Under the pieces are notes generated by a model. The model made no database searches and had not been told where the DNA came from. It worked only from the letters and a program-made list of their open reading frames with translations. The position numbers and the translations under genes are program-made. Shown piece by piece: positions 20,993 to 45,465 of a DNA stretch of 64,000 nt. Numbering within the stretch: the first letter of the stretch is position 1; each line of letters starts with the position of its first letter. Origin of the DNA: Candidatus Wallbacteria bacterium (GTDB lineage: Bacteria; Muiribacteriota; UBA6191; JACPRK01); the NCBI GenBank assembly GCA_016213845.1, contig JACQZN010000082.1, forward strand, positions 32,431 through 96,430. The letters are read 5' to 3'.

Positions 20993-21446
20993 CAAATTTC
21001 CTCCGTTGAGTGGCAAGCCCCTGGTCACGGAGTCGGCGGCGAAGTGTCCACGTTTCCTTCGGTCGCTTCGTCCTTCGAGAGGCTGGCGTTCATCATCGAT
21101 TGAGATTCCCGTGTGGTTTCCCTGGTTGGCTCCTGCCGGATTCATTGCTCACACCTCCTTTCACCGGCCGAATCGGATGGACCGACCCGGGTCGACGGCC
21201 CGGACCACGCGCAGTGAGTGCCATGGCCCTGTTGCCGTCGTGGGGTTCATTAATGAGGCTTGGCCCCCGCGTCAAAGCAGCGGCCAATCGAGCCAGTTCC
21301 GCGCCCCATGGAGGGCCCGGCCGCAAGCGGCATCGCCACGGGCACGACGCCGCGGACGGCACAAATCCGGCCGTTCGCGATGCGACCGCGTCTTCCCGGA
21401 TCGCCCCCGCGCCCCCCGGTTTTGATCGATTCCCCCCGAGGTTGGG

Positions 21447-23360: not shown

Positions 23361-25655
23361 ATGAGCGCCGTCCGCCTGGCCTGGGTCCGGCTGGCCGACG
23401 CCTGGGTGCGCATGATCGCCAGTTCTCGCCCCTGGGTCCTGGCGGCGTACAGCGTCTTCTTGCCGGCCTTCTGGATAGGCTGCATGCGGCTGGCGCCCGA
23501 GCTGTACGCGGCGCTCGAGGCTTACGACGGCCGGTTCCTGGCGCCGTTCCTGGCGGCGCTGGCGCCGTGCCTGTGGCTGCTCCTGTTCTCGCAGCGCATC
23601 TACCAGATGCCCAGCCGCACGGGGGCGTGGCTCACGCACGACTTTCACTTCCTCCTCGGGATGCCACTTCCGCTGGGCCGGGTGATGCTGGCGGCGGCGG
23701 CCGTCTGGACGCTGGGGGACTTGCCGGTCATCCTGAGCGCAGCTGCTTTGATGGCCGGGTTCCTGAAAGCGATCCGGGCTACCGCCGCTCTGGGGCTGGT
23801 GGTTGCCGTCCTTGCCCTCTGGATGGTCGGGGCGGTCTTCCTGGCCCTCGGCGTGGGGCGTCTACTGTTCCACCGCTTCCACGAGCCGCGCCACCGGCTG
23901 GCGATGGCGGTTCTGGCGTCCCTTGCTGCCTTGCTGGTCTGGTCGGGGGCGGGCGAGGGGCCCGCGATCGATCGCCCTGAGCTTGCGCTGGCCTGGCTCG
24001 AGCGCCCGGTGCCGGCGACGGAGCCGACGCTGCTGGAGAGAACCGTCGTCTCCCTGGAGCCGCTGCTGACGACGCTCGAGCGGCTCAGGCCTCTTGCGCA
24101 GGTGTTTCCGCCGTACCAGCTCTACCTGGGTGCCGAGCGGATCGCCCGCGGCGACGCGGTCGGGTGGTGGAGGCTGCTGGCGGTGGCGGCCTTGCTGGGC
24201 GTCGTGACGCTCGGATTGCTGGCGCTCCTGGAGCCCTTCTCGCGGCGCGACTGGCTCGCATTGACCTGCCCGTCGCCGGAGGATTCGGAAGATGCGTCGG
24301 GTCGAATAGAAGTATTCTCGGACCGCCGAGTTACGGGGCTCGACGCCAAGGAGCTCGCCCTCTGGGGCCACTTCTGGGCGGGTCCGCTGGCGCTGGCGGC
24401 GGCCACCGGCTGGACCACCTGGTACCTCCTGGACAAGGGGTACTCCGTGCTGGCGGCGGCCAAGCTCCTGGGGATGGCCACCTGGATGGTCGGTAGCCTG
24501 GCGGGCGACTCGCTCTCCTGGGAGCGGCGCGGGTTGACTCTCTGTCAACTCCTGCCGCTGACACCGGGGCAGATCCTGGCGGCGAAGGCCCGGTGGGCCG
24601 CGCTGGTGGGCGTGGCCAGCCTGGTCGTCCCGTTTGCGCTGGTCGGAATCCTGGCCGACGCGGAGCCGTTCGCGGAGCTGGTCCGTGGCGTGCTCGTGCT
24701 GACCTTCCTCGTCTTCACGGCGGCCTTCGCAGGGGTCGCGATCGGGGCGCTTCTGCGCGACCTCTCGGGCCAGGGACAGCCTGGCATGGGGCCGCTTCTC
24801 GGCGCGCTGATGTGGCTCGGGCTCTGCGCGGCAATGGTGGCGCAGGTCTTCTTCACCAGCGGCTACGCCATCTTCGGAGGCCTCTTCTTCGACCTGCTGC
24901 TGGTGCTGGCCCTCTGGCAGCGCGCGTGCGTCCAGCTGGCGCACCAGCATGAGCTCGAGGAAGTCGCCAATGACCAGACCACCTTCGCCGATTCCGTCGT
25001 GGTCTTCCTTTTCGCCTATCTGCTGGTCGCCGTCGTCGCGCTGAAAGCGCAGGCGATGGGGGCCGGCACGGCGGCGGTCAACGCGCTGCGCGCCTACCTG
25101 CTGACGGCGCTCTTCCCGGTCGTGCTGGCCGGGCTCACGTGGGTCCACCTGCGCGTCCTGCGGGCACCGCTCGAGCAACCTGCGCCCGGGGGGCGCTGGA
25201 AGGACGTGGCGCTGGCCCTCGGACTCGCCGGATGCACCGTCTCTCTTTCGCTAGCCTACAGCTGGGCCGTGGCGCGCCTGGGTTGGGTCCGCACGTCGGA
25301 TCTCTCGGCCGGCGTCCAGCTGCTTCGCGGCCTGCTGAAGGACCTGCCGATGGCCCCGCTGCTGGTCTTCGGGCTGATGGGCGTGCTGGCGCCGCTGGCC
25401 GAGGAAGGCTTCTTCCGCGGGCTGTTCTACCAGGGCATCCGCCGGCTGCAACCGCACGACTACCGCATCGCCGTGCTCGCCAGCGCGCTGGCCTTCGGCC
25501 TGCTGCATCCCGCGGTCCACTTCCCCGTGCTCTTCGCCATGGGCACTGCGCTGGCCCTGCTCGTCGAGTGGCGAGGGTCGCTCTTCCCGGCGATGCTGGC
25601 GCATGCGCTCCACAACTCGGCGATGGTCCTCCTCTACCTGCGAGGGGGCTCCTGA
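23361..25655 (+). CDS. Polytopic membrane protein (about 12-14 TM) with a C-terminal CPBP/CAAX-protease (Abi) domain
   Basis: It starts 2 nt after the ABC ATPase stop. The hydrophobicity pattern runs through the whole 764 aa. The C-terminus carries all three CPBP motifs: LAEEGFFRG (EExxxR), FGLLHP (FxxxH) and HALHNS (HxxxN). Confidence 0.75.
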   Translation: MSAVRLAWVRLADAWVRMIASSRPWVLAAYSVFLPAFWIGCMRLAPELYAALEAYDGRFLAPFLAALAPCLWLLLFSQRIYQMPSRTGAWLTHDFHFLLGMPLPLGRVMLAAAAVWTLGDLPVILSAAALMAGFLKAIRATAALGLVVAVLALWMVGAVFLALGVGRLLFHRFHEPRHRLAMAVLASLAALLVWSGAGEGPAIDRPELALAWLERPVPATEPTLLERTVVSLEPLLTTLERLRPLAQVFPPYQLYLGAERIARGDAVGWWRLLAVAALLGVVTLGLLALLEPFSRRDWLALTCPSPEDSEDASGRIEVFSDRRVTGLDAKELALWGHFWAGPLALAAATGWTTWYLLDKGYSVLAAAKLLGMATWMVGSLAGDSLSWERRGLTLCQLLPLTPGQILAAKARWAALVGVASLVVPFALVGILADAEPFAELVRGVLVLTFLVFTAAFAGVAIGALLRDLSGQGQPGMGPLLGALMWLGLCAAMVAQVFFTSGYAIFGGLFFDLLLVLALWQRACVQLAHQHELEEVANDQTTFADSVVVFLFAYLLVAVVALKAQAMGAGTAAVNALRAYLLTALFPVVLAGLTWVHLRVLRAPLEQPAPGGRWKDVALALGLAGCTVSLSLAYSWAVARLGWVRTSDLSAGVQLLRGLLKDLPMAPLLVFGLMGVLAPLAEEGFFRGLFYQGIRRLQPHDYRIAVLASALAFGLLHPAVHFPVLFAMGTALALLVEWRGSLFPAMLAHALHNSAMVLLYLRGGS

Positions 25656-27577
25656 TGCGCGCCCGGACGCGCCGCCGCGCCCTGGCCCTGGGCGCTGCGC
25701 TCTGGCTGGCCTGGGGACCGGCGGCAGTGGCCTCGGAGTCGTCTCGCCGCTACGCCGTCCAGCAGAGCCTGGCCGCCGGTCGCTTCGCCTCGGCAGCCAC
25801 GGCAGTCTTGGACGAGGGCGCCGCGCCGCTGCCCTGGCTCAGACGCCAGCTCTTCGACATCGCCAGCGCGCGCGCTCCCGCCGATCCGCTCGTCCTCAGG
25901 CTGCGCGAGCCCGGTGCCCTGGGCAGGCCCGTGGCCACGCTGCTGCCCCAGCCCGACCGCTCCACGCCCTCCGTCGTGGAGATGGCCGGTGCCTGGGCCC
26001 TGCAGCCCGACTCGCCCCAGGCGCGCGAGCGGCTTGCGTGGTGGCTGGAACTGGCCGACAACCATCAGTTCGAGCTGGCAGTGGAGCTGCCGCTGGCGTC
26101 GGCGCGCAAGCCGACGCTGCAAGAGACCCGAGCGATGCTTTGGCTCCTTTCCGCGCGCCTGGAGGCCCTCGAGCGCCGCGACTCCGCGGATTTCGAGCGC
26201 TGCCTGGCCCGCGCCGCCCGCGAAGGCGCGCCGCTGCCGGCCGCCTGGTTCGAACTGGCAGGCGCTGGCCCTGCCTTCACGACGCATCTGGAGCGCGCCA
26301 GGGAGGCCTTGCGCGCCGGGGACCGAGGGCCGGCACGGTCTCTCTTCCGCGAAGCTTGCGAGGCCAGCTGCCGCGCCCGCGACAGCGCCCGGCCCGTCAC
26401 CGCGCTGGTCCGCGAGGCCCGGGCCGAGTTCCCCGGCGACGAATGGTTCGTCGCCTTCGAGGCCGCGCTCTACTGGCGGGCCGGCCGCGCCATGCCCCAG
26501 CGCGCCCGGTGGTGGACACTCGCCGCCGCGGCGGCTTTGGCCCGGGGCGAGGGCACCGAAGCGGCCAGACGATTGCGCGCCGGGCGGGGACTGCTCGAGG
26601 CGCTGGCCCCGGGCCGCGAGGACTGGACCCCCTGGATCTGGGCCGCCGAGCGGCTTATCCAGGGGCCGGCGCCGCTGCCCGCCAAGACACAGTCCCTTCT
26701 CGAGCTGCCTCCGGGCCGGTCTCTGGCCTACATCCTCCCTGACGAGGCCTTCAACTACGCGATGGCCCAGCGTTGGCTGGAAAGGGCCCGCGAGCTGGGC
26801 GACCCCAGGCTGGTCCTGCGCATGCAGATCGACCCCGATCGCCCCGGCGAGGGCCCCCTGGTTTTCGCCGAGGAGCTCGTCCGGCGCGGCAAGTTTCTCG
26901 ACGCCGCCGAGACGCTCGCCTCGGTGCCTTACCTCTTCAGCGAGGCCGCGGGCGCGGAGGTCCGAGAGCGTGCCGAGGCGTGCGAATCGGCCGCGCAGAA
27001 GGGCATCCCGACTCTCCTCGGGCCCGGCCGGGAGGAGCTTGCCCGGCTGTATGTAGCGATGCTGCTAGCGACGCGCCGCTGGCAGGAAGCGCACGCTGCG
27101 CTCGCCGCACTGGTCGCGCAGTTGCCGCAGGACGCGACCGCCGCCGGGGGCAGTCGTCCGGCGCCGGAAGGGGACCAGGCTTCCGCCGAGAATCCGCCCG
27201 ACGGTCTCGAAGCGGACTCACGAGATCCGGTGCCGGGCGCGCTGCGACTGCTGGCCCGGAGCCGTTACACGCAGCTGCTCGCCCGGCTCGACGCCCTCTC
27301 GAACCGGCCGGCCGCCGCAACAGGCGGGACGGGTGCCACCGGAGGCCCGGACCTGCCTGCGTCCCCGCTTCTCGGCCTCAAGCGGGCTCCCGGTGAGGCA
27401 AAGACGACGCCGGATTCGCCCTACGGAGGCGCCATGGGGCCGGCCGAGCGGCGGTCCTTCCGGCTCGGCATCGTCGCCGTGCTGCTGGCGGCCTGGACGC
27501 GCCTGCACCTGTACCTGTTGGCCATTTTCCTCCCCGGGGGCGCTTTCTTCCGCTGGTTGCGCGCGCGACGGCCGTGA
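25655..27577 (+). CDS. Secreted Ala/Leu/Arg-rich alpha-helical (TPR-like) protein with a C-terminal TM anchor
   Basis: The ATG overlaps the upstream stop (TGATG). The signal peptide is MRARTRRRALALGAALWLAWGPAAVASE. The C-terminal hydrophobic segment is LGIVAVLLAAWTRLHLYLLAIFLPG. No catalytic motif was recognised. Confidence 0.55.
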   Translation: MRARTRRRALALGAALWLAWGPAAVASESSRRYAVQQSLAAGRFASAATAVLDEGAAPLPWLRRQLFDIASARAPADPLVLRLREPGALGRPVATLLPQPDRSTPSVVEMAGAWALQPDSPQARERLAWWLELADNHQFELAVELPLASARKPTLQETRAMLWLLSARLEALERRDSADFERCLARAAREGAPLPAAWFELAGAGPAFTTHLERAREALRAGDRGPARSLFREACEASCRARDSARPVTALVREARAEFPGDEWFVAFEAALYWRAGRAMPQRARWWTLAAAAALARGEGTEAARRLRAGRGLLEALAPGREDWTPWIWAAERLIQGPAPLPAKTQSLLELPPGRSLAYILPDEAFNYAMAQRWLERARELGDPRLVLRMQIDPDRPGEGPLVFAEELVRRGKFLDAAETLASVPYLFSEAAGAEVRERAEACESAAQKGIPTLLGPGREELARLYVAMLLATRRWQEAHAALAALVAQLPQDATAAGGSRPAPEGDQASAENPPDGLEADSRDPVPGALRLLARSRYTQLLARLDALSNRPAAATGGTGATGGPDLPASPLLGLKRAPGEAKTTPDSPYGGAMGPAERRSFRLGIVAVLLAAWTRLHLYLLAIFLPGGAFFRWLRARRP

Positions 27578-29301
27578 GCAATTGCGGGCGCGCGGCCCGG
27601 CTGCTACGATCCCGAGCCATGGCTCGACTGATCGTGAGACGGGGGCCGCGTGCTGGTTACTCCTATCCGGTCGACGACAAGACCGTGACCATCGGCCGGG
27701 ACCCGGCGCGGACAGTGCCGATCCTCGACGGGAAGGTCTCGAGGCTCCACGCCGAGATCGTGCCGACCGCCCATGGCTGGATGGTCCGTGACCTGGGCGC
27801 GACGAACAAGACTTACGTCAACGGCCGGGCCGTGACGGAGGCGCTGCTGGCGTTCGGCGACGCGATCTCGATTGGCGAAACCGAGTTCGTCTTCGAGGCC
27901 GACGAGATGGACCTGCCCGGCCCGCCCGATCTGACGGTCGTGGTCACGGCGGAGTCCGTTCCGGCCGGGGGCGTCACTCTGCCGATGCCTCAGCCCGGAT
28001 TCGAGGACTTTCTGCCGTCTGCGCCCGCCGCCGAGTCCGACGAGCTGGCCCGCCGTCAGGCGCGCCGGCTGAAGGTGCTCTGGCGCGTCTCGCGCACGGC
28101 TTTCGTGAAGAGCGATCTGGCGACCTTCCTGGAAGAGATCCTGACGCTCGTGCTGGGCGAGCTCGAGGCCGACACGGCGGTTTTCCTCCTCGCCTCCGAG
28201 GGCGCCAAGCTCACTCCCATCGTGACTCACCGCGCCCGGGGCGCCAGCGCCGAGCCTGCGATCGTCCTGACCTCCACCGTGGTCAATCGGGTCTTCGCAT
28301 CCGGGGACGCGCTGCTGGTCGCCGACGCCGCCAAGGACCTGTCGGGCGCCGCGAGCGTGCGGGCGCAGCGCATCAGCTCCGTCATCTGCGTGCCGCTCAA
28401 GAGTCCTGAAAAGACCTACGGAGTCTTTTACATGGATCGGCGCTCCGGCGGGGCCTGGTTCGATCACGAGGACCTGAGCTTCCTGGCCACCGTCTGCGCG
28501 CACGTGGCCGTCAACATCGAGAACCTGGCGCTCTACCAGAAGCAGCGGGAGGCCTACGAACGGCTCAAGCTGGCCCAGGAGCAGCTCCTGGCATCCGAGA
28601 AGATGAGCGTGCTCGGACGGCTCGCCGGTTCCGTTGCACACGAGCTCAACAATCCGCTGCAGTGCATCCTGATGTGCTCCGAGCTATTGAAGGACGAGCT
28701 GCGCCTGCGAGGCACCGTCGTCAATCCGGCGACGGCGCTCGACCAGCTCGAGATGGTCCACCACTCCGTGGCGCGCTGCTCCAGGCTGGTCCAGAACCTG
28801 CTCCACTACTCGCACAAGGGTGACACCGCCGGGCTCGTGTCGCTCCCGCTGGCCCGGCCAGTCTCCGAGGCCGTCAAGTTGATGACCTATCTGGTCCGCA
28901 AGCGAGGCATCGAGATCGCTACCGACCTGCCGCCGGACTTGCCGTCCATCCTCGGCAACGGCTCCGAGCTGGAGCAGCTGTTCATCAACCTCATCAAGAA
29001 CTCGGCCGACGCCATCCCGGGCAAGGGCAACATAGCAGTCTCGGCCTCGCTCGAGCCGGACTGCATCGAAGTGCGCGTGACGGACAGTGGCGGGGGAATC
29101 CCGCCGGAGACGTTGCCGCACATCTTCGAGGAGCTGTTCACGACGAAGCCGATCGGCGAGGGAACGGGATTGGGCTTGCCGCTCTGCAAGCGAATCGTCG
29201 AGAACCACGGGGGCACCATCGAGGTCGAGAGCCGGGTCGGCGCCGGCACGACGGTGACGGTCCGGTTCCCGTTGACCGGCAGCGCGTCGGCCGTTGCCTG
29301 A
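27574..29301 (+). CDS. FHA-GAF-histidine kinase (cytoplasmic sensor kinase)
   Basis: The GTG overlaps the upstream stop (GTGA); an alternative ATG lies at 27619. FHA domain (TVTIGRDPARTVPILDGKVSRLHAEI...NKTYVNG), GAF-like middle region, H-box SVAHELNNPLQ, N/G boxes (LIKNSADA, DSGGGIP, GTGLGL). Confidence 0.75.
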   Translation: MSNCGRAARLLRSRAMARLIVRRGPRAGYSYPVDDKTVTIGRDPARTVPILDGKVSRLHAEIVPTAHGWMVRDLGATNKTYVNGRAVTEALLAFGDAISIGETEFVFEADEMDLPGPPDLTVVVTAESVPAGGVTLPMPQPGFEDFLPSAPAAESDELARRQARRLKVLWRVSRTAFVKSDLATFLEEILTLVLGELEADTAVFLLASEGAKLTPIVTHRARGASAEPAIVLTSTVVNRVFASGDALLVADAAKDLSGAASVRAQRISSVICVPLKSPEKTYGVFYMDRRSGGAWFDHEDLSFLATVCAHVAVNIENLALYQKQREAYERLKLAQEQLLASEKMSVLGRLAGSVAHELNNPLQCILMCSELLKDELRLRGTVVNPATALDQLEMVHHSVARCSRLVQNLLHYSHKGDTAGLVSLPLARPVSEAVKLMTYLVRKRGIEIATDLPPDLPSILGNGSELEQLFINLIKNSADAIPGKGNIAVSASLEPDCIEVRVTDSGGGIPPETLPHIFEELFTTKPIGEGTGLGLPLCKRIVENHGGTIEVESRVGAGTTVTVRFPLTGSASAVA

Positions 29302-30202
29302 GGAAGGAGTGGGCATGAGGGACGGTCTACTGTCACGAGGCCGGCGACTGGCCGGGACACTGCTGGTGCTCTCGGTGCTCGGCACCTGCCGGGCCGATGC
29401 GGCAAGCTGGATCTCCAACCCCCGACCGCGGGCGTCGCAGCAGCGCGTGGCGCCCTGGGTCATCGCTCATCGCGGCGCCAGCGCGGACTTCCCCGAGAGC
29501 ACGATGCTGGCCTTCCGCGAAGCGATTCGCGCCGGGGCCGATGCCATCGAGCTCGACTGCCAGACCACCTCCGACGGCAAGCTCGTCGTCCTGCACGACG
29601 ACCTTCTGGATCGCACAACCGACGGCCGCGGGCCCGTGTCGGCCCTGAGCTGGGCCCAGGTGGAGCGGCTCGACGCCGGCCGCTGGAAGCACGCCCGGTT
29701 CGCGGGCGAGCGCGTGCCGACCCTGGAGCAAGTCGTCAGGTTGGCGATGACCGAGAACGTCGGGCTCGTCATAGAGGCGAAGACTCCCTACATCCTCGAC
29801 CCCGGGCTCGCCGGACGCATCCTGGAGCTGCTGGACCACGAGGGGGCCACTTCCCGCACGATCCTGCAGTCGTTCGACCATCGGCCGCTGACCGAGATTC
29901 ACGCGCGGCGGCCGGAGGTGAAGCTGGGCCCCCTGGTCGACGCCGGGATCGACGACGTCCGGGCGATGCTGGCGGCCGCCGGCACCTGGGCCTACCTGCC
30001 GCACTATGGCTTCATGCTCCCCGACCGTGTGCGCGCCGCGCATCGGCTCGGCTATCACATCGCGGTCTGGACCGTCGACCGCCCCGAGCACATGCTGGCG
30101 ATGACCGCCGCTGGCGTCGACGGCATCATGACGAACCGGGCCGGCACCTTGCGCCGCTTGCTCGACGGCCTTCGACTGCCGCGCCGGCCGTGGCCGCGCT
30201 GA
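29294..30202 (+). CDS. Glycerophosphodiester phosphodiesterase (GDPD family), secreted/lipoprotein
   Basis: Motif block VIAHRGASADFPESTMLAFREAIRAGADAIELDCQTTSDGKLVVLHDD. The signal peptide ends LGTC. An alternative start lies at 29315. Confidence 0.8.
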   Translation: MPEEGVGMRDGLLSRGRRLAGTLLVLSVLGTCRADAASWISNPRPRASQQRVAPWVIAHRGASADFPESTMLAFREAIRAGADAIELDCQTTSDGKLVVLHDDLLDRTTDGRGPVSALSWAQVERLDAGRWKHARFAGERVPTLEQVVRLAMTENVGLVIEAKTPYILDPGLAGRILELLDHEGATSRTILQSFDHRPLTEIHARRPEVKLGPLVDAGIDDVRAMLAAAGTWAYLPHYGFMLPDRVRAAHRLGYHIAVWTVDRPEHMLAMTAAGVDGIMTNRAGTLRRLLDGLRLPRRPWPR

Positions 30203-30446
30203 CGCACGGTCCCGGCAAGGTCTCGAGCCCGGAGGCGGAAGACGGGGACCGGCTCCGGAAGCCCGCCTGCAACCTGGCAGTCGTCCGGCCGGGCTCCCGG
30301 TGCCTGTCCCGTCTTTCGACGACGTTGCCGTTGTTTTGCGCGCTGACGGGTCTCCGGTTGCGGCAAAGGCCATGGTTCTGACACGATGAGGGACGCTGCC
30401 CGGCGGACCGACGAGCCGGCGGGAAGAAAGCGAGGAGCGTGCGAGT

Positions 30447-30659
30447 ATGGCCAACCTTCCTATCAGCAACGTCCGGCGGCTGCTTGCGACGAAAGCCGGC
30501 GACATCCGGATCTCGGCCGAGACCGTGACCCTGGGCGTCGAAGCCGCCGAGGAATACCTGGCGCGCCTGGGCGAACGGGCCGCCAGCATCGCGCGCGGTC
30601 ACATGCGCAAGACGATCATGCCCGAGGATCTCGAGGCTGCGAAGAAGATGCTCATCTAG
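30447..30659 (+). CDS. Histone-fold DNA-binding protein (bacterial HMf-like histone, 70 aa)
   Basis: Alignable by eye to archaeal HMfB over its whole length: LPI..RR....AG..RIS.....L......YL..L...A...A....RKTI..EDLE.A. The single histone fold has alpha1-L1-alpha2-L2-alpha3 spacing. The L2 RKTI signature is intact. Confidence 0.7.
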   Translation: MANLPISNVRRLLATKAGDIRISAETVTLGVEAAEEYLARLGERAASIARGHMRKTIMPEDLEAAKKMLI

Positions 30660-30695
30660 TCCGGGGCGAGGCGGGTACGCGACCCGCCGGAAGAG

Positions 30696-31568
30696 CTAGC
30701 GCCTGTCGCCGAAGAGCTCGACGGCATTTCTCCAGAAGAGCGCGTCCTCCACGTCTCGGCCGAGCTCCAGGTCCAGGATGCAGCGGCGCTCGCGGTCGTA
30801 GTCGTAGGGGAGAATCGGGAAGTCGGTCCCGTACATGATGCGGCGGTGATGGCGCAGGACCCAGTCGCGGCCGGGCGCACCGGGGAAGTAGCGGGCCAGG
30901 ACCATGGCGGTGTCGAGGCGCAGAGCGGCGAAGCGCGCAAGCAGCGCGGCGGCCAGCTCGTACTCACCTGCACCCAGGTGGGGCACGACGCAGGGCATCT
31001 CCGGGAAGCGCTCCAGCACGGGCACGAGGCGGGCGAGGCCGCTCACCTCGTGGCAGGGACGTGGGTAGGCCGGGGAGGCCGGCTCCGTGCCGGCGTGCAC
31101 GACCAGCGGCAGCCGGCGGCTGGCCAGCAGCTCGTAGGCGGGAAAGAGGCGCGGGTCGTCGGGCGGGAAGCCCATCACGTGCGTGTGGAGTTTGAGGCCG
31201 CGCAGACCGAGCTCGTCCAGGGCGCGGCGCGCGACGGCCCGGACGTCGTCGGCCGGGTGAACGGTGCCGAGCGCCACGGCCTCGGGGTGCGTGCGCGCGT
31301 AGGCCGCCATCCAGTCGTTGAGCGAGTCTGCGAGGCCGGCCTTGTGCGCGTAGACCATCGCCACGTGGCGCGACACACCCCGGGCGGCCAGGAACGCGGC
31401 GACCTCTTCTCCCGGCATCCCCTGTTCGATGGCCCAGGCGTGCGTCCCGAACCAGCTCTCGATGGCGCGGTAAAGCCGGGGAGGCCACGGGTGAACGTGG
31501 ACGTCGAACGTCGGGCGCGGCGGCACGGGGGCCGAGAGCTCGACCGGCTCGATGGCGGTGGGGCACAT
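30696..31568 (-). CDS. Amidohydrolase-2 family metal-dependent hydrolase (TIM barrel)
   Basis: Start MCPTAIEP at 31568. The metal-binding HxH reads FDVHVHPW, with later His/Asp ligands (VHAG, HLGAG, GTDFP). The upstream half of the 567-aa ORF is Arg/Gly junk. Confidence 0.7.
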   Translation of the reverse strand: MCPTAIEPVELSAPVPPRPTFDVHVHPWPPRLYRAIESWFGTHAWAIEQGMPGEEVAAFLAARGVSRHVAMVYAHKAGLADSLNDWMAAYARTHPEAVALGTVHPADDVRAVARRALDELGLRGLKLHTHVMGFPPDDPRLFPAYELLASRRLPLVVHAGTEPASPAYPRPCHEVSGLARLVPVLERFPEMPCVVPHLGAGEYELAAALLARFAALRLDTAMVLARYFPGAPGRDWVLRHHRRIMYGTDFPILPYDYDRERRCILDLELGRDVEDALFWRNAVELFGDRR

Positions 31569-31631: not shown

Positions 31632-32306
31632 ATGGGTGAGCTGATCCGGTTCTCGCGCCCCGATGGCCAGGAGTGCCCGGGGTATCTGGCCACGCCGGCG
31701 GCCGGCGGCGACGCGCCCGGCATCGTCGTGATCCAGGAGTGGTGGGGCCTCAACGACCAGATCCGGGGCGTTGCGGACCGGTTTGCCGCCGCGGGCTATC
31801 GGGCGCTGGTGCCGGATCTCTATCGCGGCCGGGTCGCCGCCACTCCCGACGAGGCCAACCACATGATGAGCGGGCTCGACTGGGGCGCCGCGACGGTGCA
31901 GGACGTCCAGGGCGCCGTGCACCATCTGGGGCGCGGCGGCCGGCGCGTCGCGGTCCTGGGCTTCTGCATGGGCGGGGCGTTGACGCTGCTGGCCGCGGCG
32001 AAGGTCTCGGGGGTCACCGCGGGCGTCTGCTTTTACGGCATCCCGCCCGAGAGCGCCTGCGACTTTGCCTCCATCCGGGTGCCGCTCCTGTTGCACTTCG
32101 CCGAGCACGACGACTGGTGCAACGCCGCGGCCGTGGACCAGCTGGCCGCCCGTCTGACCGCTGGGCGAGTGCCGCACGACCTTCACCGCTACGACGCCCA
32201 GCACGCCTTTTTCAACGAGCAGCGCCCCGAAGTCTACGACGCCGCCACTTCGAAGCTGGCCTGGGACCGCTCGTTGCAGTTCCTCGCAAGAGAGCTGGGT
32301 GCGTGA
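31632..32306 (+). CDS. Dienelactone hydrolase family protein
   Basis: Start MGELIRF with an AAGGAG RBS. Motifs GIVVIQEWWGLNDQI and GFCMGG (nucleophile Cys), plus a C-terminal His. Confidence 0.8.
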   Translation: MGELIRFSRPDGQECPGYLATPAAGGDAPGIVVIQEWWGLNDQIRGVADRFAAAGYRALVPDLYRGRVAATPDEANHMMSGLDWGAATVQDVQGAVHHLGRGGRRVAVLGFCMGGALTLLAAAKVSGVTAGVCFYGIPPESACDFASIRVPLLLHFAEHDDWCNAAAVDQLAARLTAGRVPHDLHRYDAQHAFFNEQRPEVYDAATSKLAWDRSLQFLARELGA

Positions 32307-32358
32307 GCCGCTGCCGGCGGTACCCACCGCCGGCCCGCGGAGAGGAGCCGTGAGAACC

Positions 32359-35300
32359 ATGAGGCCACCGGCGATCGGACCGGACCGCGTACGGCCCATC
32401 GAGCGGCCCTGGGGAGCCTTCGACCTGTCCCGCGCTGGCGTCGTTGCCCGCTGGCTTTGCCTGGCCGGCTTCCTGGCGATAGCCTCGAGCGCCTCCGGTC
32501 AGCCCAACCCGCAGGTCGTCGCCATCTCCGCGCCGGCGCTCGCGGCGAGCTCGGACTCGGCGCCGGTGACCGTGACGGTGAGAAACGCCGGCTCCTCGGC
32601 CACGGAGGCCCCCGTTCGCGTCGGGCTCCTGGCCGTGAGCGCCGGGACCAGCGGAGTCGCTTCCTCTGCTGAGTTCGATGACTCCATCGAGGCGAGCGAG
32701 CCGCTGGCGCCCGGCGAATCGCGCGACTTCGAGACCCGGGTGCGCGTCCTGCTACCGGCCGGCTCGGCCAGGCTCGCCGCCTTCGTCGATCCGCAGGGCG
32801 AGCTGGAAGAGTCTGACGAGACCGACAACGATTTCGTCGGCGACGCCGTCCTGCAGGTCGTCGACCCGACGGGCAACCTGGTCGTCGACGGCCTGGAGCT
32901 CCCGGGTTCGGCGTCGCTCGGCGAATCGGTGCCTTTGACCGTCACGGTCCGAAACGCGGGGACCGGTCCGCTCCGATTCTCCTCCGGGTTCGCCGTGGTG
33001 CTCTCGACGACCACCGCCCCCGGACCCGGGGCCATCGTCGTCAACTACGGCCGCGGTGTCGAAGCTCTCCCGGCCGGCGCCCGCGCGACGGACTCCCTGC
33101 GCTTCACGGTTCCGCTCGGCATCGAGCCGGGACGCTACTACGTGGTCCCGATTGCGGACTACAATCGAGAAGCCGGCGAGACCAGCGAGAGCGACAACGC
33201 CCTCCAGGCGCGTTCGATCGACCTCTCCACTCCGACGGTAGATCTGACCGTCGACGCTGTCGACGCACCCACTGCCATTCCCGTGGGCCGCCCTTTCCAG
33301 GCCACGGTGGACCTTTCCAACGGCGGGACCACGGCCGCTTCGATGCCGTTCGTGCTCTCGATCGTAGTGACGCGCGATCTGACCTCCACGGACACGGAGC
33401 CCTCCATCGGCTCTCGGACCATCGACGCGCTCGCCGCGGGCGGCTCGCTCTCCACGACCGTCGCCTGCCGCGTGCCCGCCACGATTGCCCCGGGCGACTA
33501 CGCGCTGTCGGCGCTGGTCGACGCCGACGCACTCTACGGCGAGCTCGACAAGGCGAACAACCGCCGCGCCTCTTCCGGCGGCCTGGCGGTGTCCACGGCG
33601 GACGTCGACCTGACCATCGAGGCAATCCGGGTCCCCACCGGCGGCGTCATCGGCGGGCCCGTCCGAGCCCGTTTCTCCGTCTCCAACCTGGGAACCGGCG
33701 CTGTGCCAGAGGCTTTTTACGTCGGCTTCTACCTCTCGACGGACGGCGAGCGGAGCGACACGGACGCGTACCTTGGCGAGCGATACGTCGAGAGCCTGGA
33801 GGGCGGCCAGACCACGACCTTCACCGCCGAGAGCCGGCTCCCGCTGGCCCTGACCAGCGGCGCCTACTTCTACCTGGCGGTGGCGGACCGGGACCACGGC
33901 ATCGACGAGGAGAACGAGTCGAACAACCTCTCCGCCACTCCATTCAGTGCCCGCGCCTCGCGCATCGATCTGGTGCCGGTGGCCGTGACAGCGCCGGCCT
34001 CGGGCGCGCCCATGGAGTTCGTTCCGCTGTTCGTGAGCGTCGAGAACCGCGGCACGGACGATAGTCCGCCTTTCCTGGTCCTGTTCTCGGCCTCCCCGGG
34101 GCCCGTACTGACGGACACGGCGATCCTGATCGGCCAGTCCTACTTCACGCAGGGGGGGCTGGCGGCGGGGGAGCGCCGACTGGAGGGTCCGTTTTTCGCC
34201 GACGTCCCCGAGGGCACGCCGGAAGGCTCCTATACCCTGTTTGCCACCGTGGACCAGGATGATCGCGCTTCCGAGTCGAACGAGTCGAACAACAATCTGG
34301 CTGCCGTGGCGCCCTTCGCCATCACGACGGCAGCTTCGAGCGTCGATGACCACCCGGACGCCTACACCCTGACTCGCCCCTCCGAGGACCTGCTCCCGGG
34401 CGATGGACGGCCCGTGCTGGCACGGCACGAGCGCGTCCGCGACGTCGACTTCTTCCGCTTCCAGGCCGGCGCCGGCGACCAGATCGTCCTGGACGTCTTC
34501 GGCCAGCCCAGCTCCTTCGTCGACACCTTGGTGGAGCTTTTGGGTCCTGACGGAAAGCAGCTCGGTTCCAACGACAACTTCGGCGACATCAGCCGATCGC
34601 GCGTCGGTCCGATCGCCGCACCCTCCACCGGCACGTACTTCGTCGCGGTGCGGGAGACCCAGCCATTCGGTCAGGGACCGTACGTCCTGAGGGCCCGGCT
34701 CGAGCGCGGGCAGCCCGACCTGACGGTGGCGGTCTCGCCCCCCGCTCCGGCCAGTGTCCCGCAGGGCCTGCGGTTCCGCACGACGGTCACGGTCTCCAAC
34801 GTCGGACAGGCGATTGCGCTCGGTGGCGCCAAGGTGAAGCTTTTCCTTTCGGCCGATTCCGCCATCACGACAAGCGACATCGCAGTCGGCGAGGTCGAGG
34901 CGCCCGACCTTCCCGCGGGCGCTTCCGTGCGACGCGCCGCCGAGCTGTTGGCGGACGGCTTCGAGGCCGATCCGGGATCCTACTTCGTCGGCGCCATCGC
35001 CGACCCGGGCCGTGCCGTCCCACAGACCAATTTCGCCAACGACGTCGCCGTGGCGCCCACACGGCTCACCGTCACCCAGGCACCCGATGATCACCCGGGC
35101 CGCGCGGCCCTGACCAGGCCCCTCGAGGACGGCCTGACGCTCGACGGCGACTGGGTCTACGCCCGAGTGGAGCGACCCGGCGACGAGGACTTCTTCCGCT
35201 TCGACGTGCTGGCCGACCAGATCTACATGGTCGAGACCCTTCCCGGCACGCTGGCCACGCGCCACTTGACCGTCTTCCGCGACGGCGAAATCGACGTCGC

Positions 35301-38139
35301 CGGCGAAAGCGACGCGGACGGCGAGCCGGCAACGACGCGCGTCATCTTCCAGGCCTATGCCGACGGCGTCGCCTACGTTCGGGTTCGCGCCCGGGAGCCC
35401 GAAGATGAGGGCAGCTATTCCGTCAGTGCCGTCCTGCTGCCCGAGGGGACCATCGACGACCACGTGGACGATGCCGGCATCCTGGCAGTTCGCGTGCCCG
35501 TGCAGCAGGCGCAACACGGGTTGATCGGGCGGACCGGCGACGTCGACGTCGTCCATTTGAAGCTGCGGGACGGCATCCGCTACCGGATCGCTGTGCGGCC
35601 GTTGACGCTCCCCGAGGTCCGTGTCGACCTCCTCGGTCCTGGCGGCGCCGCGCTGCTGCCGCAGCGTGCGTCGTCGTCTCCGGGCGGTTCCGTCGAGTTC
35701 ACCCTGACGGCGACCGGCACCGCGGGAGTCTTCGTTCGAATCGCCGGCAAGACCGCGTCCCAGGTCGGCAAGTGGCTTCTCTTCTACGACTTCGCCGATC
35801 CGCCGAGCATCTCCGTTACCGAGACCCGCAGCGGCAGTCAGCTCCTGGTCGACCTCGACATCGACGGTCTTCCCGCGGCGATCGAGGCGATGGAGATGCC
35901 GCTCGAGTTCGAGGGCGACGGGCTTCGCTACACCGGGACCGCGGTGCCGGGTCCGGCTGCCGAGGGGTTGCTGCTGCTCGACACCGGTGGAGAGAACCTC
36001 GGCTACCTCGGTCTTTCGTTCTATGCCGAGGAATCGCTCGATCCCGCGCGACAGCCGAGGAACGGCCGGCTGGTGCGGCTGGTGTTCGACGTCGTGAATC
36101 CCGGCGAGCTGGTTGCCGACAGTTTCGGCACGACCAAGGTCGACGTCGTCACGCCGGACTTCGAGCAGTTCTCGCTCTTCGCCCCGCGGGCCGACGCCGG
36201 CGTGGGGCAGACCGTGCTGCTGGAGCGGACCGCGCAGGGGCAGGTGCTACGCACCCTGGTGGACCCGTTGGACCCTTCGGGTCCGAGAGTGGACTTCGTG
36301 CGCCTGGACGGCAGCCTGAGCGCCGACGAGAGCCCGTTCCCGGCGACGCTCACCTATCGCTGGAGTGTCACGACCAGCCCGGTGCCGGTCACGCTGGCGC
36401 AGCCCGCCAGCTCGGTGCCGACCTTCGCGCCCACGACCCCCGGGTACTACGAGTTTGGTCTCAAGGTCCAGGGCGGGGGTCTCACCAGCCCGCTCCACGC
36501 CGTCGGAGTCGAGATCGGCATCGCCAACGAATCGCCCACGGCTCAGCCGGCCGCCTACGACCCTGCCACCGATCGCTCGACCACCCCGGAGGAGCCGGTC
36601 CTGCAACTGCAAGCGGGCGGCGGTCGCGTGGAGCTCGACGGAGGAGATTCCTTCGATCCGGACGCCGCGGAGGGCGACGTGCTGCAGTACCAGTGGCGTC
36701 AGCTCGGCGGACCTACGGTGAGTCTGTCGCCCTCGGCCCAGGACGTGACCCCCTCGTTTGCGCCGACGAGCCCGGGGAACTTCGTCTTCGAGCTGAAGGT
36801 AGTCGACGCCGCCGGGCTCGAGAGCATCCCGCGCCAGGTGAGCGTGCTGGCGACTCCGGGCGCCACCCTGGCGCCGCTGGCGCTTACCGCTCGCGCTTCC
36901 GGCCGCAAAGCCGTGGGTGCTGCCCTGCCGATCTCGGTGGTCGACGTGCAGGACCGCTCGCTGCGCGTGACGCTGCCCGCGACCGTGACCCTGAGCGCCT
37001 CGCTGGCCGCGAGGCCGTCCCAGGACACGACGGGCTATCTCCAGTTCTTCTGGCAGCAGGTCGAGGGCTCGCCCGTGTCACTTTCGTTGCCTCTGGCCGT
37101 CGTCGAGGAACTGCAGTCGGCGACGGTCTTCGAGCCGGCGACGGCTGGCGTCTTCGAGTTCGACTGCCTGGTACAGGAGCAGGACGAGCTTGGTCAGTCG
37201 ACGGGAGTCGAGTTGGGGCGCCGCATCCGGGTGGTCGTGGACGGGCTCGACAATGGCGTGCCGGTTTCGGTGGCGGTGCCGAGGAGCCTGGACGCGAAGG
37301 CCGCGCCGGCCGGCGCCAACGAGCCGGCCGTCGTGCGCGTCGCCAGTGGGGGGCGCGTGCAGCTCGACGGCGGCCGGTCGCGGGATCTCGGGGCCGGAGC
37401 AGACCTGAGCCTCGCCTACCAGTGGACGCAGATCTCGGGGCCGCCCGTGGTGCTATCCAACCCGTTCGCTTCACTGACCACGTTCGTGTCGCCCGTCTTT
37501 CCGGATATGTCGCGGCCGCTGGTGTTCGCGCTGTTCGTGGACGACGGGTCGGTCCGCAGCGCGCCGGCTCTGGCCGTCGTGGAAGTCCAGGAGACCAGCC
37601 GGCTGTCGAGCGGTCTGGACCTGGGAGGCGGCGCGAACTTCATCGGCGTCGGGGTCGCGCCGCGAGGAGGTCCGGGAACGTACTACGCGTCCGATCTGGC
37701 GCTCGACGCCGGGGTCTCGATGCTGGTGCGGCTCGAGTCGACGCCCGCGGGGCGCCGCTTCCGGCCCTTCTTTGCCGGGACCGGCGAGCGCGGCTTCCTG
37801 GTGCAGGGAAACGAAGGCTATCTCCTCTTCGGCAGCGGCGGGGCGCAGAGGCGGTCCCTGTTCGGGTCGGCGTGGGACTCCTCGCAGCTGCAGAAGCAAC
37901 TGGCCGACGGGCTGAACCTGGTGGCGATGCCGCGAGGAGTGCCGGCAGGCTTCACGGTTGGGTCGCTGGCTGCGCTCACGGGTGCACGCTTCGTCGCGTA
38001 CACCGAGCAGGTTGGCGGAAGGGCCCGCACGAGCGTCTACGTTCCGGGATTGTCGCTCACGGCGCCGGCCGTCGTGAGCGGCAAGTCCTACCTTCTGAGC
38101 GTCCCCGGAACACCTGCTGTCAGCCTGCCGGGGAGATGA
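32359..38139 (+). CDS. Giant secreted multi-repeat protein (1926 aa): about 8 CARDB-like domains, 3 PPC (pre-peptidase C-terminal)-like domains, 4-5 PKD/K319-like repeats
   Basis: Signal peptide VVARWLCLAGFLAIASSASG. CARDB repeats follow the pattern DLxVxxxxxPxxxxxGxxxxxxVxVxNxGxxxA (e.g. DLTVDAVDAPTAIPVGRPFQATVDLSNGGTTAA). Three DDHPDAYTLTRP..DVDFFRF PPC-like units are present. Y(Q/R)W(R/T)Q..GP PKD-like repeats occur in the C-terminal third. No catalytic domain was found. Confidence 0.75.
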   Translation: MRPPAIGPDRVRPIERPWGAFDLSRAGVVARWLCLAGFLAIASSASGQPNPQVVAISAPALAASSDSAPVTVTVRNAGSSATEAPVRVGLLAVSAGTSGVASSAEFDDSIEASEPLAPGESRDFETRVRVLLPAGSARLAAFVDPQGELEESDETDNDFVGDAVLQVVDPTGNLVVDGLELPGSASLGESVPLTVTVRNAGTGPLRFSSGFAVVLSTTTAPGPGAIVVNYGRGVEALPAGARATDSLRFTVPLGIEPGRYYVVPIADYNREAGETSESDNALQARSIDLSTPTVDLTVDAVDAPTAIPVGRPFQATVDLSNGGTTAASMPFVLSIVVTRDLTSTDTEPSIGSRTIDALAAGGSLSTTVACRVPATIAPGDYALSALVDADALYGELDKANNRRASSGGLAVSTADVDLTIEAIRVPTGGVIGGPVRARFSVSNLGTGAVPEAFYVGFYLSTDGERSDTDAYLGERYVESLEGGQTTTFTAESRLPLALTSGAYFYLAVADRDHGIDEENESNNLSATPFSARASRIDLVPVAVTAPASGAPMEFVPLFVSVENRGTDDSPPFLVLFSASPGPVLTDTAILIGQSYFTQGGLAAGERRLEGPFFADVPEGTPEGSYTLFATVDQDDRASESNESNNNLAAVAPFAITTAASSVDDHPDAYTLTRPSEDLLPGDGRPVLARHERVRDVDFFRFQAGAGDQIVLDVFGQPSSFVDTLVELLGPDGKQLGSNDNFGDISRSRVGPIAAPSTGTYFVAVRETQPFGQGPYVLRARLERGQPDLTVAVSPPAPASVPQGLRFRTTVTVSNVGQAIALGGAKVKLFLSADSAITTSDIAVGEVEAPDLPAGASVRRAAELLADGFEADPGSYFVGAIADPGRAVPQTNFANDVAVAPTRLTVTQAPDDHPGRAALTRPLEDGLTLDGDWVYARVERPGDEDFFRFDVLADQIYMVETLPGTLATRHLTVFRDGEIDVAGESDADGEPATTRVIFQAYADGVAYVRVRAREPEDEGSYSVSAVLLPEGTIDDHVDDAGILAVRVPVQQAQHGLIGRTGDVDVVHLKLRDGIRYRIAVRPLTLPEVRVDLLGPGGAALLPQRASSSPGGSVEFTLTATGTAGVFVRIAGKTASQVGKWLLFYDFADPPSISVTETRSGSQLLVDLDIDGLPAAIEAMEMPLEFEGDGLRYTGTAVPGPAAEGLLLLDTGGENLGYLGLSFYAEESLDPARQPRNGRLVRLVFDVVNPGELVADSFGTTKVDVVTPDFEQFSLFAPRADAGVGQTVLLERTAQGQVLRTLVDPLDPSGPRVDFVRLDGSLSADESPFPATLTYRWSVTTSPVPVTLAQPASSVPTFAPTTPGYYEFGLKVQGGGLTSPLHAVGVEIGIANESPTAQPAAYDPATDRSTTPEEPVLQLQAGGGRVELDGGDSFDPDAAEGDVLQYQWRQLGGPTVSLSPSAQDVTPSFAPTSPGNFVFELKVVDAAGLESIPRQVSVLATPGATLAPLALTARASGRKAVGAALPISVVDVQDRSLRVTLPATVTLSASLAARPSQDTTGYLQFFWQQVEGSPVSLSLPLAVVEELQSATVFEPATAGVFEFDCLVQEQDELGQSTGVELGRRIRVVVDGLDNGVPVSVAVPRSLDAKAAPAGANEPAVVRVASGGRVQLDGGRSRDLGAGADLSLAYQWTQISGPPVVLSNPFASLTTFVSPVFPDMSRPLVFALFVDDGSVRSAPALAVVEVQETSRLSSGLDLGGGANFIGVGVAPRGGPGTYYASDLALDAGVSMLVRLESTPAGRRFRPFFAGTGERGFLVQGNEGYLLFGSGGAQRRSLFGSAWDSSQLQKQLADGLNLVAMPRGVPAGFTVGSLAALTGARFVAYTEQVGGRARTSVYVPGLSLTAPAVVSGKSYLLSVPGTPAVSLPGR

Positions 38140-39645: not shown

Positions 39646-40281
39646 CTACTTGCTCGCCGGGCGGGCCGGGACCCAGCGGGTGCGCCGGGACTGGCTCAGC
39701 GTGTCGACGAGCGCGAGCTGGCCGCGGAGCGTCATGAGGCGAGTTGTCGCTGCGCTTGCGGCGGAGCTGTCCATCCCGCCGTAGGGCACGGCGACTTCGT
39801 AGAGCACGAGGTCGCCCCCCAGGCCGCCCCGGAAGTCGATGTCGAAGCGCGCGACGCGCGTGGCGCCGATCTGCACGGCTCGCCCGCCGGCCTGGCGGAC
39901 GACGCGGCGGGTGGCGCGGTCGAGGCCGTAGACGACCTTCTCGACGGCCTCGCCCTGGGCCTTGCCCGCAGTGCGGCGATAGAACGTGACACGGTCGAAG
40001 GTGCCCGGGTCGACCGCCGCCGCCGATTCGAGCAGCAGCGGCTTGCCGCCCCATTTCTCGTATTCCTCGAGGCCGGGAAGCGCCAGGCTCGAGAGGTCGG
40101 CGCGCAGGTGCTCGACGATCGATTCGGCGCCGCGCAGGGCGGTGAGCCTGCCGATGCTGGCCGAGACGCGCTTGTTGTCGAAGTAGTAGAGCGTCCAGAG
40201 GACTGTGAACGTGATGATGGTGAGGAGGAGGCCGACGACGATCTCGATCATCGAGAAGGCGGCGCGGCGGCGGGCTCTCAA
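39646..40281 (-). CDS. Minor pseudopilin, GspJ-like (prepilin-type N-terminus)
   Basis: Putative TTG start overlapping the upstream stop (TTGA). The N-terminus MRARRRAA/FSMIEIVVGLLL has prepilin cleavage/methylation-like F+1 and E+5. The start codon is uncertain. Confidence 0.55.
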   Translation of the reverse strand: MRARRRAAFSMIEIVVGLLLTIITFTVLWTLYYFDNKRVSASIGRLTALRGAESIVEHLRADLSSLALPGLEEYEKWGGKPLLLESAAAVDPGTFDRVTFYRRTAGKAQGEAVEKVVYGLDRATRRVVRQAGGRAVQIGATRVARFDIDFRGGLGGDLVLYEVAVPYGGMDSSAASAATTRLMTLRGQLALVDTLSQSRRTRWVPARPASK

Positions 40282-40772
40282 TTGCAGTCCTCCACAGGCG
40301 GCTTGGAGGTGAAGGGGGGCAGCGCTGCCAGGGATCGCCTCGGGTTGGAGACCAGGCGGTCGCAGGTCAGGGAGAGCTCGCGGTCGGGGGCGGTGGAGCG
40401 CCATTTGACGGTGGCCTGCAGCCGGATCAGTCCGCCAACCTCGAGCCGGGCGAGCCGGACCTGGCGGGAGACGTCCCGAGCGGAGACGCCGGCGCCGGCA
40501 ACGCCGCCGAGCGCGGCCTGGATCTCGGGGGCGGCACCTGACAGCGTGAGCTCCTTGGCGTCGCCGAGCAGTGCGTCGAGCCGGGCGTAGCCGAGGGAGC
40601 CGGCGAAGTGCTCGAGAAGGTGCTCGGCTTCGCTCTGGGCGCGGAGCTGGGTCTCGCCCTGTTGACCGCGCCTGCGGGAGAGCGTGTTGAGCCCCAGGAG
40701 CGGCACGATGGCGGCGACGATCAGGACCAGCGCCACGAGGATCTCGGTGAGCGTGAAGGCGCGACGGGTCAT
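40278..40772 (-). CDS. Minor pseudopilin, GspH/I-like
   Basis: MTRRAFTLTEILVALVLIVAAI is a canonical prepilin N-terminal motif (F+1, E+5). It is 164 aa. The ATG overlaps the upstream stop (ATGA). Confidence 0.75.
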   Translation of the reverse strand: MTRRAFTLTEILVALVLIVAAIVPLLGLNTLSRRRGQQGETQLRAQSEAEHLLEHFAGSLGYARLDALLGDAKELTLSGAAPEIQAALGGVAGAGVSARDVSRQVRLARLEVGGLIRLQATVKWRSTAPDRELSLTCDRLVSNPRRSLAALPPFTSKPPVEDCN

Positions 40773-45351: not shown

Positions 45352-45411
45352 GACCGGCTGTATAGCACACCGACCCAGGCGGTGAGCCGGTCAGCGCGCG
45401 GCGGAAGCATC

Positions 45412-45465
45412 GGTGGCGTCTACCTGTACCGGGTTTTCGAAAAACCCGGTACAGGTAGACGCCAC
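45412..45465. terminator. Perfect 54-bp palindrome (27-bp arms) with GGGTTTTT on both strands; bidirectional intrinsic terminator downstream of the WD40 gene
   Basis: gtggcgtctacctgtaccgggtttttc | gaaaaacccggtacaggtagacgccac, with no mismatches. Confidence 0.7.

Follow-up and report, generated by a model that had tools for sequence, protein, structure and literature searches.

We analysed a 64,000-nucleotide stretch of a Candidatus Wallbacteria assembly (GCA_016213845.1, contig JACQZN010000082.1, positions 32,431 to 96,430; hereafter the window) and found that a short forward-strand gene near its centre encodes a stand-alone, single-domain histone-fold protein of 70 amino acids (aa). In a structural model and in alignments, the protein is built like the full-length core histones of archaea and eukaryotes and not like the shortened bacterial histones characterised so far. 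Judged by its aligned residues, it combines nucleosomal architecture and nucleosomal DNA-contact residues with the loss of the canonical tetramer interface. It belongs to a known kind, the bacterial histone-fold proteins, and is an undescribed full-length, sprocket-arginine, H3/HMfB-like variant that surveys say bacteria lack. Our preferred reading, held with moderate confidence, is that it is a non-specific DNA-binding homodimer and a nucleoid-associated protein.

The open reading frame (ORF) starts at an ATG at 30447 and ends in a TAG stop at 30657-30659, exactly where an earlier annotation made from the letters of the DNA alone (the sequence-only reading) had placed a 70-aa product. AGGAG of the Shine-Dalgarno-like element (Table 1) was retained in the alignment with the locus of an 89%-identical orthologue (L012). 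GC content at codon positions 1, 2 and 3 was 0.65, 0.45 and 0.86, matching the Pfam-supported genes of the window, which has a GC content of 69% overall. A strain variant differed from the gene by seven synonymous and zero non-synonymous changes, while the ratio of non-synonymous to synonymous substitution rates (dN/dS) was 0.09 against the 89%-identical orthologue, 0.09-0.16 against three of four more distant orthologues and 0.42 against the fourth (L009). The identical protein occurred on four further independently assembled contigs, with the same neighbours each time, and is already deposited at NCBI as MBI4868556.1, auto-named ‘NFYB/HAP3 family transcription factor subunit’. The ribosome-binding site, coding GC pattern, dN/dS and recurrence beside the same neighbours together indicate a real protein-coding gene, which is under purifying selection. 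Spurious ORFs are abundant in GC-rich DNA, and histones in bacterial metagenome-assembled genomes (MAGs) were earlier suspected to be contaminants (PMC10627809), such that a chance ORF or an assembly contaminated with archaeal or eukaryotic DNA might be proposed instead. However, we consider an artefact of either sort excluded by the purifying selection, by profile scores above curated cut-offs, by codon-position GC identical to that of the adjoining bacterial genes, by the diderm bacterial genes that fill the window, and by the presence of this gene in four other assemblies, flanked there too by these bacterial genes, with synteny of a neighbouring Amidohydro_2 gene in two other MAGs.

Two Pfam families matched the whole protein, PF00808 (CBFD_NFYB_HMF; 40.8 bits vs. 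a gathering cut-off of 21.4, E = 2.7e-10) and PF00125 (Histone; 39.5 bits vs. 26.4), and the NCBIfam model NF043032 (archaea_histone) scored 29.3 bits, under its cut-off of 50. A phmmer search of the PDB returned HPhA of Pyrococcus (3.2e-6) and HMfA (3e-4), both over the full length, followed by histone H3. The AlphaFold2 (AF2) model, built with 18 homologues, had a mean predicted local distance difference test score (pLDDT) of 92.8 and comprised a short, a long and a short helix with loops between them, spanning residues 6-17, 24-51 and 59-69 (12, 28 and 11 residues by DSSP on the model). In a Foldseek comparison with the PDB, HPhA, Asgard HHoB, HMfA and HMfB were the top matches (template modelling score, TM, 0.81-0.86; root-mean-square deviation 1.3-1.7 Å over 65-69 columns), and H3 and NF-YB ranked after the archaeal histones. 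The whole-length alignment with HMfB that the sequence-only reading had made by eye is thus upheld by Pfam, phmmer and the AF2/Foldseek comparison, and its RKTI motif lies at residues 54-57. The histone fold, ribosome-binding site and homologues, the lack of which that reading had named as grounds for dropping the proposal, are all present, and the check it suggested against solved histones including HMfB returned the expected fold. Its description of α3 as rich in Glu and Asp holds mildly, as PEDLEAAKKML has three acidic and two basic residues. A DUF1931 or pseudodimeric double histone was ruled out, the protein being a single fold of 70 aa.

The positions expected to contact DNA were strongly conserved. 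Among the 18 homologues, R21, S23, R54, K55, T56 and D61 were invariant, as was M58, and R11 was nearly so. Residue R21 is paired with T56, and D61 pairs with R54 as an ‘R-D clamp’. The pair formed by an L1 arginine and an L2 threonine (‘RV/RT pair’), the motif RKTV and also an R-D clamp are described as universal signatures of DNA-wrapping histones (PMC13260811) and are named in PMC10627809 too. The nucleosomal DNA-contact signatures present here are RKT(I/V)xxxD, the R-D clamp and the sprocket arginine paired with the L2 threonine. Locally, the protein also has H3-like motifs, TIMP-x-D at the junction of L2 and α3 and EA-x-E-x-YL in α2. The protein is mildly basic, with a predicted isoelectric point (pI) of 9.4 and a range of 8.3-9.6 in the family, compared to 9.6 for HMfB and 8.9 for HBb, such that its charge resembles that of known histones.

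Helix lengths set the protein apart from the bacterial histones described to date. Prokaryotic histones have been divided into nucleosomal histones, in which α2 and α3 are of full length, and ‘α3 histones’, in which α3 has only 3-4 residues and α2 is 4-5 residues shorter (PMC11390915). All described bacterial stand-alone singlets belong to the α3 group, as HBb/Bd0055-like dimers or HLp-like face-to-face histones, and minor separate groups include IHF histones and DUF1931 doublets (PMC11390915). Hocher et al. called a short α2 ‘diagnostic of bacterial singlet histones’ and reported that neither the sprocket arginine R19 nor H49 is conserved in bacterial singlets (PMC10627809). Published surveys, Schwab et al. 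and Hu et al. among them, hold nucleosomal histones to be exclusive to archaea, or to archaea and eukaryotes (PMC10627809, PMC11390915, PMC12701072), and the two main surveys take a shortened α2 as diagnostic of bacterial singlets. The bacterial histones characterised so far are HBb and HLp only, both with shortened α2 and α3. The window protein has an α2 of 28 and an α3 of 11 residues, as in the nucleosomal helix criterion of Schwab et al. 2024 (α2 ~28 aa, α3 ~10 aa). The family profile scored HPhA at 33.1 bits, HMfA at 29.7, the H3 core at 29.3 and HMfB at 25.7, compared to 22.9 for HBb, 16.3 for HTkC and about 0 for HLp. The alignment with HMfB was gapless from L1 to the C-terminus, whereas HBb and HTkC required a four-residue gap in α2 and stopped before α3.

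The residues that control tetramer formation were, by contrast, not those of archaeal histones. Three residues, HMfB L46, H49 and L62, govern the contacts between HMfB dimers and also the wrapping of DNA by the engineered Bd0055 S45F/A48H/I61L (PMC10627809). The equivalents in the window protein are I48, G51 and A64, which are not the residues of the four-helix bundle; all family members have G, S or A at position 51, and most have A, S or T at position 64. Among 186 related singlets, 153 combined an R19-equivalent and full α2 and α3 with the lack of both an H49-equivalent and a hydrophobic L62-equivalent, and the archaeal pattern of H49 plus L62 was found in only 11, all of them more distant matches. 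We therefore expect, with somewhat better than even confidence and on the strength of the missing canonical bundle residues, that the protein forms dimers, or oligomers of a non-canonical sort, and not an HMfB-like hypernucleosome.

The protein has relatives elsewhere, an initial search having returned 17 homologues with 54-89% identity, all about 70 aa long. Homologues were present in only 3 of 185,579 GTDB species representatives, including a ‘Wallbacteria’ MAG (JACQFU01) and a ‘Cloacimonadota’ MAG, and when 1.84 billion cluster representatives were scanned with the profile, no more than 323 matched at E <= 1e-3, while 24 did so at E <= 1e-10. A broader profile search yielded 487 proteins at E <= 1e-6, most of them singlets of 70-76 residues with the form MGELPNAVVKRLL...RVSG...AAEDYIARLA...KRKTVMDxDIExARAKL, and two named ‘histone-like protein [Myxococcota bacterium]’. 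Because identity to the window protein was bimodal (~23 sequences had 60-100%, three had 50-54% and all others 30-48%), the sequences resolve the window family as a discrete small clade of about 25 members beside a larger sister clade from Myxococcota MAGs. The sequence-only reading had thought a singlet worth documenting; it is indeed a stand-alone bacterial histone, but one of a clade with a larger sister group. Contigs with either type were all GC-rich (60-72%). Among the best profile matches were also double-histone-fold proteins (P0020, P0026, P0039, P0044 and P0047; ~155-220 aa), the second fold of which resembles the window protein, and five proteins (P0022, P0024, P0034, P0041 and P0019) have related folds that continue at the C-terminus into a conserved extension containing cysteine (WGGDAC...), P0019 with an extra N-terminal domain as well. 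The family was not found in IMG/VR viral contigs, and a viral origin was ruled out, the BFVD matches being only distant giant-virus histones with <=35% identity.

The Myxococcota-type singlets (e.g. P0368, P0359 and DKAI01000097.1-5 of Deltaproteobacteria bacterium UBA6930) aligned with the window family at a probability of 99.5% in hhalign, gapless over 71 columns and with 41% identity. Their AF2 model has the same architecture as the window protein, with α2 at 24-51 and α3 at 59-71 (pLDDT 90.2). They keep R21, RKT and D61 and likewise lack H49- and L62-equivalents; they differ in having no histidine near L2 and D59 instead of P59. Their genomic context is bacterial and syntenic, in the order LarB-LarC-histone-response regulator-GroEL/ES-LexA, and the contigs are as long as 249 kb. 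DKAI01000097.1-5 is listed in Supplementary Table 1 of Hocher et al. (PMC10627809), where the window type was not found; the histone of Wallbacteria GWC2_49_35 given in that table is a different, unrelated protein of 108 aa. Discussion of full-length bacterial singlets was not found in the papers available to us.

From the fold and the conserved residues we infer dimerisation, DNA binding and a role in the nucleoid. As in all histone folds, a homodimer would form by antiparallel crossing (‘handshake’) of the long α2 helices, and each dimer would present two paired L1-L2 sites that bind DNA independently of its sequence. At each site R21 would enter the minor groove, held by T56, with phosphate contacts from K55, S23 and main-chain amides, and the R54-D61 clamp would stiffen L2. 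A central α1-α1 site with R11 and the N-terminal Pro5 would complete the DNA surface, such that each dimer may bend ~30 bp, as HMfB or an H3-H4 dimer does. Gene neighbourhoods that vary across the family, with no conserved operon partner, fit a general chromatin protein of this sort.

Some observations weigh against our preferred reading. Net charge is only +2. The histidine H52, one residue past the canonical H49 position, was nearly invariant in a 12-sequence subset (a few family members have Y, K, N or S instead), and positions 51 and 64 keep small residues throughout, which makes an adapted and tighter dimer-dimer contact possible. H52 and the small residues lend some weight to a true nucleosomal-type histone that would build α2-C/α3 four-helix bundles on DNA and wrap it in a tetrasome- or hypernucleosome-like manner as HMfB does, H52 and the small residues providing an alternative tight interface. 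Such a histone would also account for the full-length α2 and α3, as found in the only known builders of open four-helix-bundle tetramers (PMC13260811), for the hypernucleosome formers among the top structural matches (5t5k HMfB, 9qv5/9qv6 HHoB), and for the retained sprocket arginine, RT pair and H3-like TIMPxD and EAxExYL motifs. We nevertheless consider it unlikely, given that the residues shown by experiment to control the tetramer are I48, G51 and A64 here (PMC10627809), that the histidine, displaced by one position, is turned by ~100 degrees about the helix or else falls in the loop, that position 68 is Gln in most family members, that the sister clade has Lys at both 64 and 68, and that the archaeal-histone model of NCBIfam scored well under its cut-off. 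That the window clade and its Myxococcota sisters together are the first bacterial histones of nucleosomal architecture, being full-length dimers that both polymerise on DNA and wrap it in nucleosome- or hypernucleosome-like particles, through an adapted α2-C/α3 contact involving H52 and small residues at 51 and 64, seems a little less probable still; were both clades to wrap DNA, the confinement of nucleosomal histones to archaea and eukaryotes would be overturned.

Many histone-fold proteins, among them TAFs, NF-Y and CENP-T/W/S/X, are not bulk chromatin proteins, and the product could by analogy be a gene-specific regulator or a protein-protein scaffold that works with a partner in the way of NF-YB/HAP3. 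The product name assigned by PGAP suggests this, PF00808 also covers NF-YB and NF-YC, the structural matches include NF-YB2/YB3 and rice GHD8 at TM of about 0.8 (chains assumed from the entry titles), and a low net charge would suit such a role. The automatic name is, however, merely the label of the Pfam family, and a protein of 70 aa and three helices is too short to include the further helix that NF-YB has at its C-terminus. A second histone-fold gene was not found in the window or beside any homologue, the best matches in sequence and structure are archaeal histones and H3 and not NF-Y, and the invariant residues are those that contact the DNA backbone and minor groove in core histones. 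A regulator or scaffold is therefore, in our judgement, improbable, more so than DNA wrapping, and a sequence-independent DNA-binding homodimer remains the reading that best fits the data.

The histone gene lies 3′ of a same-strand glycerophosphodiester phosphodiesterase (GDPD) gene, with a spacer of 244 nt (30203-30446), and a hydrolase gene converges on it from downstream (Table 1). On this geometry the gene can reasonably be regarded as monocistronic, as the sequence-only reading had it (with a 245-bp upstream region), although no promoter or terminator was detected and orthologues elsewhere overlap their downstream gene. The scan of 30100-30800 found neither a promoter of sigma-70 consensus nor an intrinsic terminator. 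A GC-rich hairpin after the stop codon (30660-30691) was rejected as a terminator, folding no better than shuffled sequences (z = −0.42). Between strains, the proximal ~110 nt of the spacer were nearly identical while the distal part (~30223-30336) was replaced by unrelated sequence, a pattern that fits a promoter and 5′ untranslated region (UTR) in the proximal part. A small ORF in the spacer (30190-30381) was discarded as a gene, having atypical codon-position GC and lying in the region replaced between strains. Rfam and tRNA scans of the window gave no matches.

Table 1 Features of the histone locus, parts of the encoded protein and loci of the sister type; positions are those of the window unless another locus is named.
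Feature	Position	Strand	Description	Basis
GDPD gene, upstream	29315..30202	+	Glycerophosphodiester phosphodiesterase; 244 nt away	PF03009, E 3.8e-51; called on L001, L002
Proximal upstream region	30337..30446	+	~110 nt; presumed promoter/5′ UTR	Alignment of window with L002, L003
Shine-Dalgarno-like GAGGAG	30432..30437	+	9 nt 5′ of ATG	Read from sequence
Histone-fold gene	30447..30659	+	70 aa plus TAG; product MANLPISNVRRLLATKAGDIRISAETVTLGVEAAEEYLARLGERAASIARGHMRKTIMPEDLEAAKKMLI	ORF, Pfam, AF2, dN/dS, identical deposited protein
α1, residues 6-17	30462..30497	+	R11 = HMfB R10	DSSP on AF2 model, alignments
Loop L1, residues 18-23	30498..30515	+	Invariant R21 = HMfB R19 ‘sprocket’ arginine; S23 invariant	
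α2, residues 24-51	30516..30599	+	28 residues; I48, R50, G51 = HMfB L46, R48, H49	
Loop L2, residues 52-58	30600..30620	+	H52, then R54-K55-T56-I57-M58 (RKTI motif)	AF2 boundaries
α3, residues 59-69	30621..30653	+	11 residues; P59, E60, D61 invariant; A64 = HMfB L62	
Amidohydro_2 hydrolase gene, downstream	30696..31568	-	Convergent	PF04909
DLH gene	31632-32306			
Myxococcota-type sister loci	L026:10001-10222; L029:2911-3135		70-76-aa full-length singlets	

Other neighbourhoods in the family were PrkA-histone-IMPDH and DUF488-histone-MGMT, in both of which the histone gene overlaps the downstream gene by 4 nt. No conserved operon partner was found across the family, and the convergent Amidohydro_2 gene was shared by three related MAGs only. 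Its adjacency was recovered by tblastn at L012:324-1208 (71% identity) and L014:1860-2702 (56% identity), and it converges on the histone gene in all three MAGs, although identity between the histones is in places as low as 64%. We read this adjacency as inherited synteny and not as a functional link. One of the MAGs concerned is labelled Cloacimonadota, and the shared synteny suggests that the MAGs are related and that some of the phylum labels are unreliable.

The host is a GC-rich diderm bacterium, as the sequence-only reading had recognised, and its MAG is labelled Candidatus Wallbacteria at NCBI. Diderm bacterial genes of the window encode outer-membrane efflux proteins, a CusCBA-like RND pump, a MacAB-type pump, PilT- and PilB-like ATPases, two-component systems, a Ser/Thr kinase, a Kup transporter and a class A penicillin-binding protein. 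The PilT of the window and the histone both matched proteins of that MAG at 100%. The next relatives of PilT were 80, 71, 68 and 61% identical, and the lineage is poorly sampled. The Wallbacteria reference genome GWC2_49_35 has, by its name, a GC content of about 49% vs. 69% in the window, and the phylum label of this MAG should accordingly be treated with caution.

Several other genes of the window were noted. Two genes 5′ of the histone gene is a histidine kinase (27574-29301, +) that, unusually, has an FHA domain at its N-terminus, with GAF, HisKA and HATPase domains after it, and before it lies a long putative ORF of up to 812 aa (25139-27577, +) with an uncertain start and no Pfam match, which overlaps alternative GC-rich ORFs. 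Downstream, a predicted surface protein of 1,946 aa (32299-38139, +) has repeated CARDB domains along with PKD-like, PPC and DUF11 domains, and a 51%-identical orthologue occupies the same position at L012. A 922-aa HEAT-repeat protein adjoins a WD40 beta-propeller protein (42583-46510, -), and two ORFs upstream of these genes (40278-42550) had no Pfam match. Two separate tripartite efflux systems are encoded (47-5976, +, and 48315-55921, +); the membrane-fusion protein of the CusCBA-like RND pump carries heavy-metal-binding domains, and the MacAB-like ABC pump comes with an OEP and extra HlyD-family proteins, one of 939 aa. A 620-aa protein has an S-layer-homology (SLH) domain (19283-21145, -), and its occurrence together with outer-membrane efflux proteins in one genome hints at an atypical diderm envelope.

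The window gene, its ~25 relatives and the hundreds of Myxococcota sisters show that bacterial chromosomes stably inherit full-length histone folds with the sprocket arginine. They provide a natural comparison of the parts played by fold length and by four-helix-bundle residues in DNA wrapping, and are relevant to whether the full-length fold arose before archaea and bacteria split or was transferred later. Since the proteins are small and easily expressed, the wrapping question is directly testable.

Among the known types, IHF histones deserve comparison as they have been reported in Wallbacteria, along with Omnitrophota, CG03 and Elusimicrobiota, with a structured tail at the C-terminus that dimerises and an operon that includes an IHF-like gene (PMC11390915). 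The window protein is not of this type, as it ends after α3 at residue 70 and its gene has GDPD and Amidohydro_2 genes as neighbours; no HU/IHF motif was present in the 64 kb. With the face-to-face histones HLp (Leptospira perolatii; 9QT0) and HTkC (Thermococcus kodakarensis; 9F2C) it shares the histone fold and an RxT motif in L2, and its H52 stands two residues before the L2 arginine, at the position of their tetramerising Asn (PMC11390915). Face-to-face histones have truncated α2 and α3 and form closed tetramers through R48 and N52 in profile hidden Markov model numbering (PMC11390915), and this type was ruled out by the full-length helices and by I48 and H52 in place of R and N.

Bdellovibrio bacteriovorus HBb (Bd0055; 8FVX, 8CMP), to which the sequence-only reading had likened the product, has in common with it a bacterial stand-alone singlet, the RKT(V/I)M motif of L2 and a similar pI. 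HBb is dimeric, the state that we also consider most likely for the window protein. The likeness is otherwise misleading, as HBb-type and Leptospira-type bacterial histones lack the full-length α2 and α3 and the L1 sprocket arginine (PMC10627809, PMC11390915): α2 of HBb is four residues shorter and its α3 a single turn, compared to full-length α2 (28 residues) and α3 (11 residues) here; Asn occupies the position of the L1 sprocket arginine, R21 here; the Ser-Lys motif of its α1 is Ser-Asn here; and identity is 27%. HBb was absent from the top 50 structural matches in the PDB, and the bacterial-dimer type was ruled out on the full-length α2 and α3 and the retained sprocket arginine.

The eukaryotic H3 core resembles the window protein in its helix lengths and in the TIMP-x-D and EA-x-E-x-YL motifs, and scored as high as archaeal histones against the family profile. 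The interface residues of H3 (H113, L126 and I130) are not kept, the N-terminal tail and αN helix of H3 are missing, and the assembly would probably be a homodimer, unlike the H3-H4 heterodimer. Closest are the archaeal nucleosomal histones HMfB and HMfA (Methanothermus fervidus; 1A7W, 1HTA, 5T5K), HPhA (Pyrococcus horikoshii; 1KU5) and Asgard HHoB (9QV5), with 32-39% identity. The window protein differs from these in having a bacterial host, a one-residue insertion at the end of α1, G and A in place of H49 and L62 with the histidine shifted by +1, and Asn in place of the second proline of the ‘proline tetrad’. Like them, it is a tailless singlet of ~70 aa with an α2 of 28 aa and an α3 of about 11 aa, and it shares with them the N-terminal L-P, R10, R19, S21, R52-K53-T54 and D59 (HMfB numbering).

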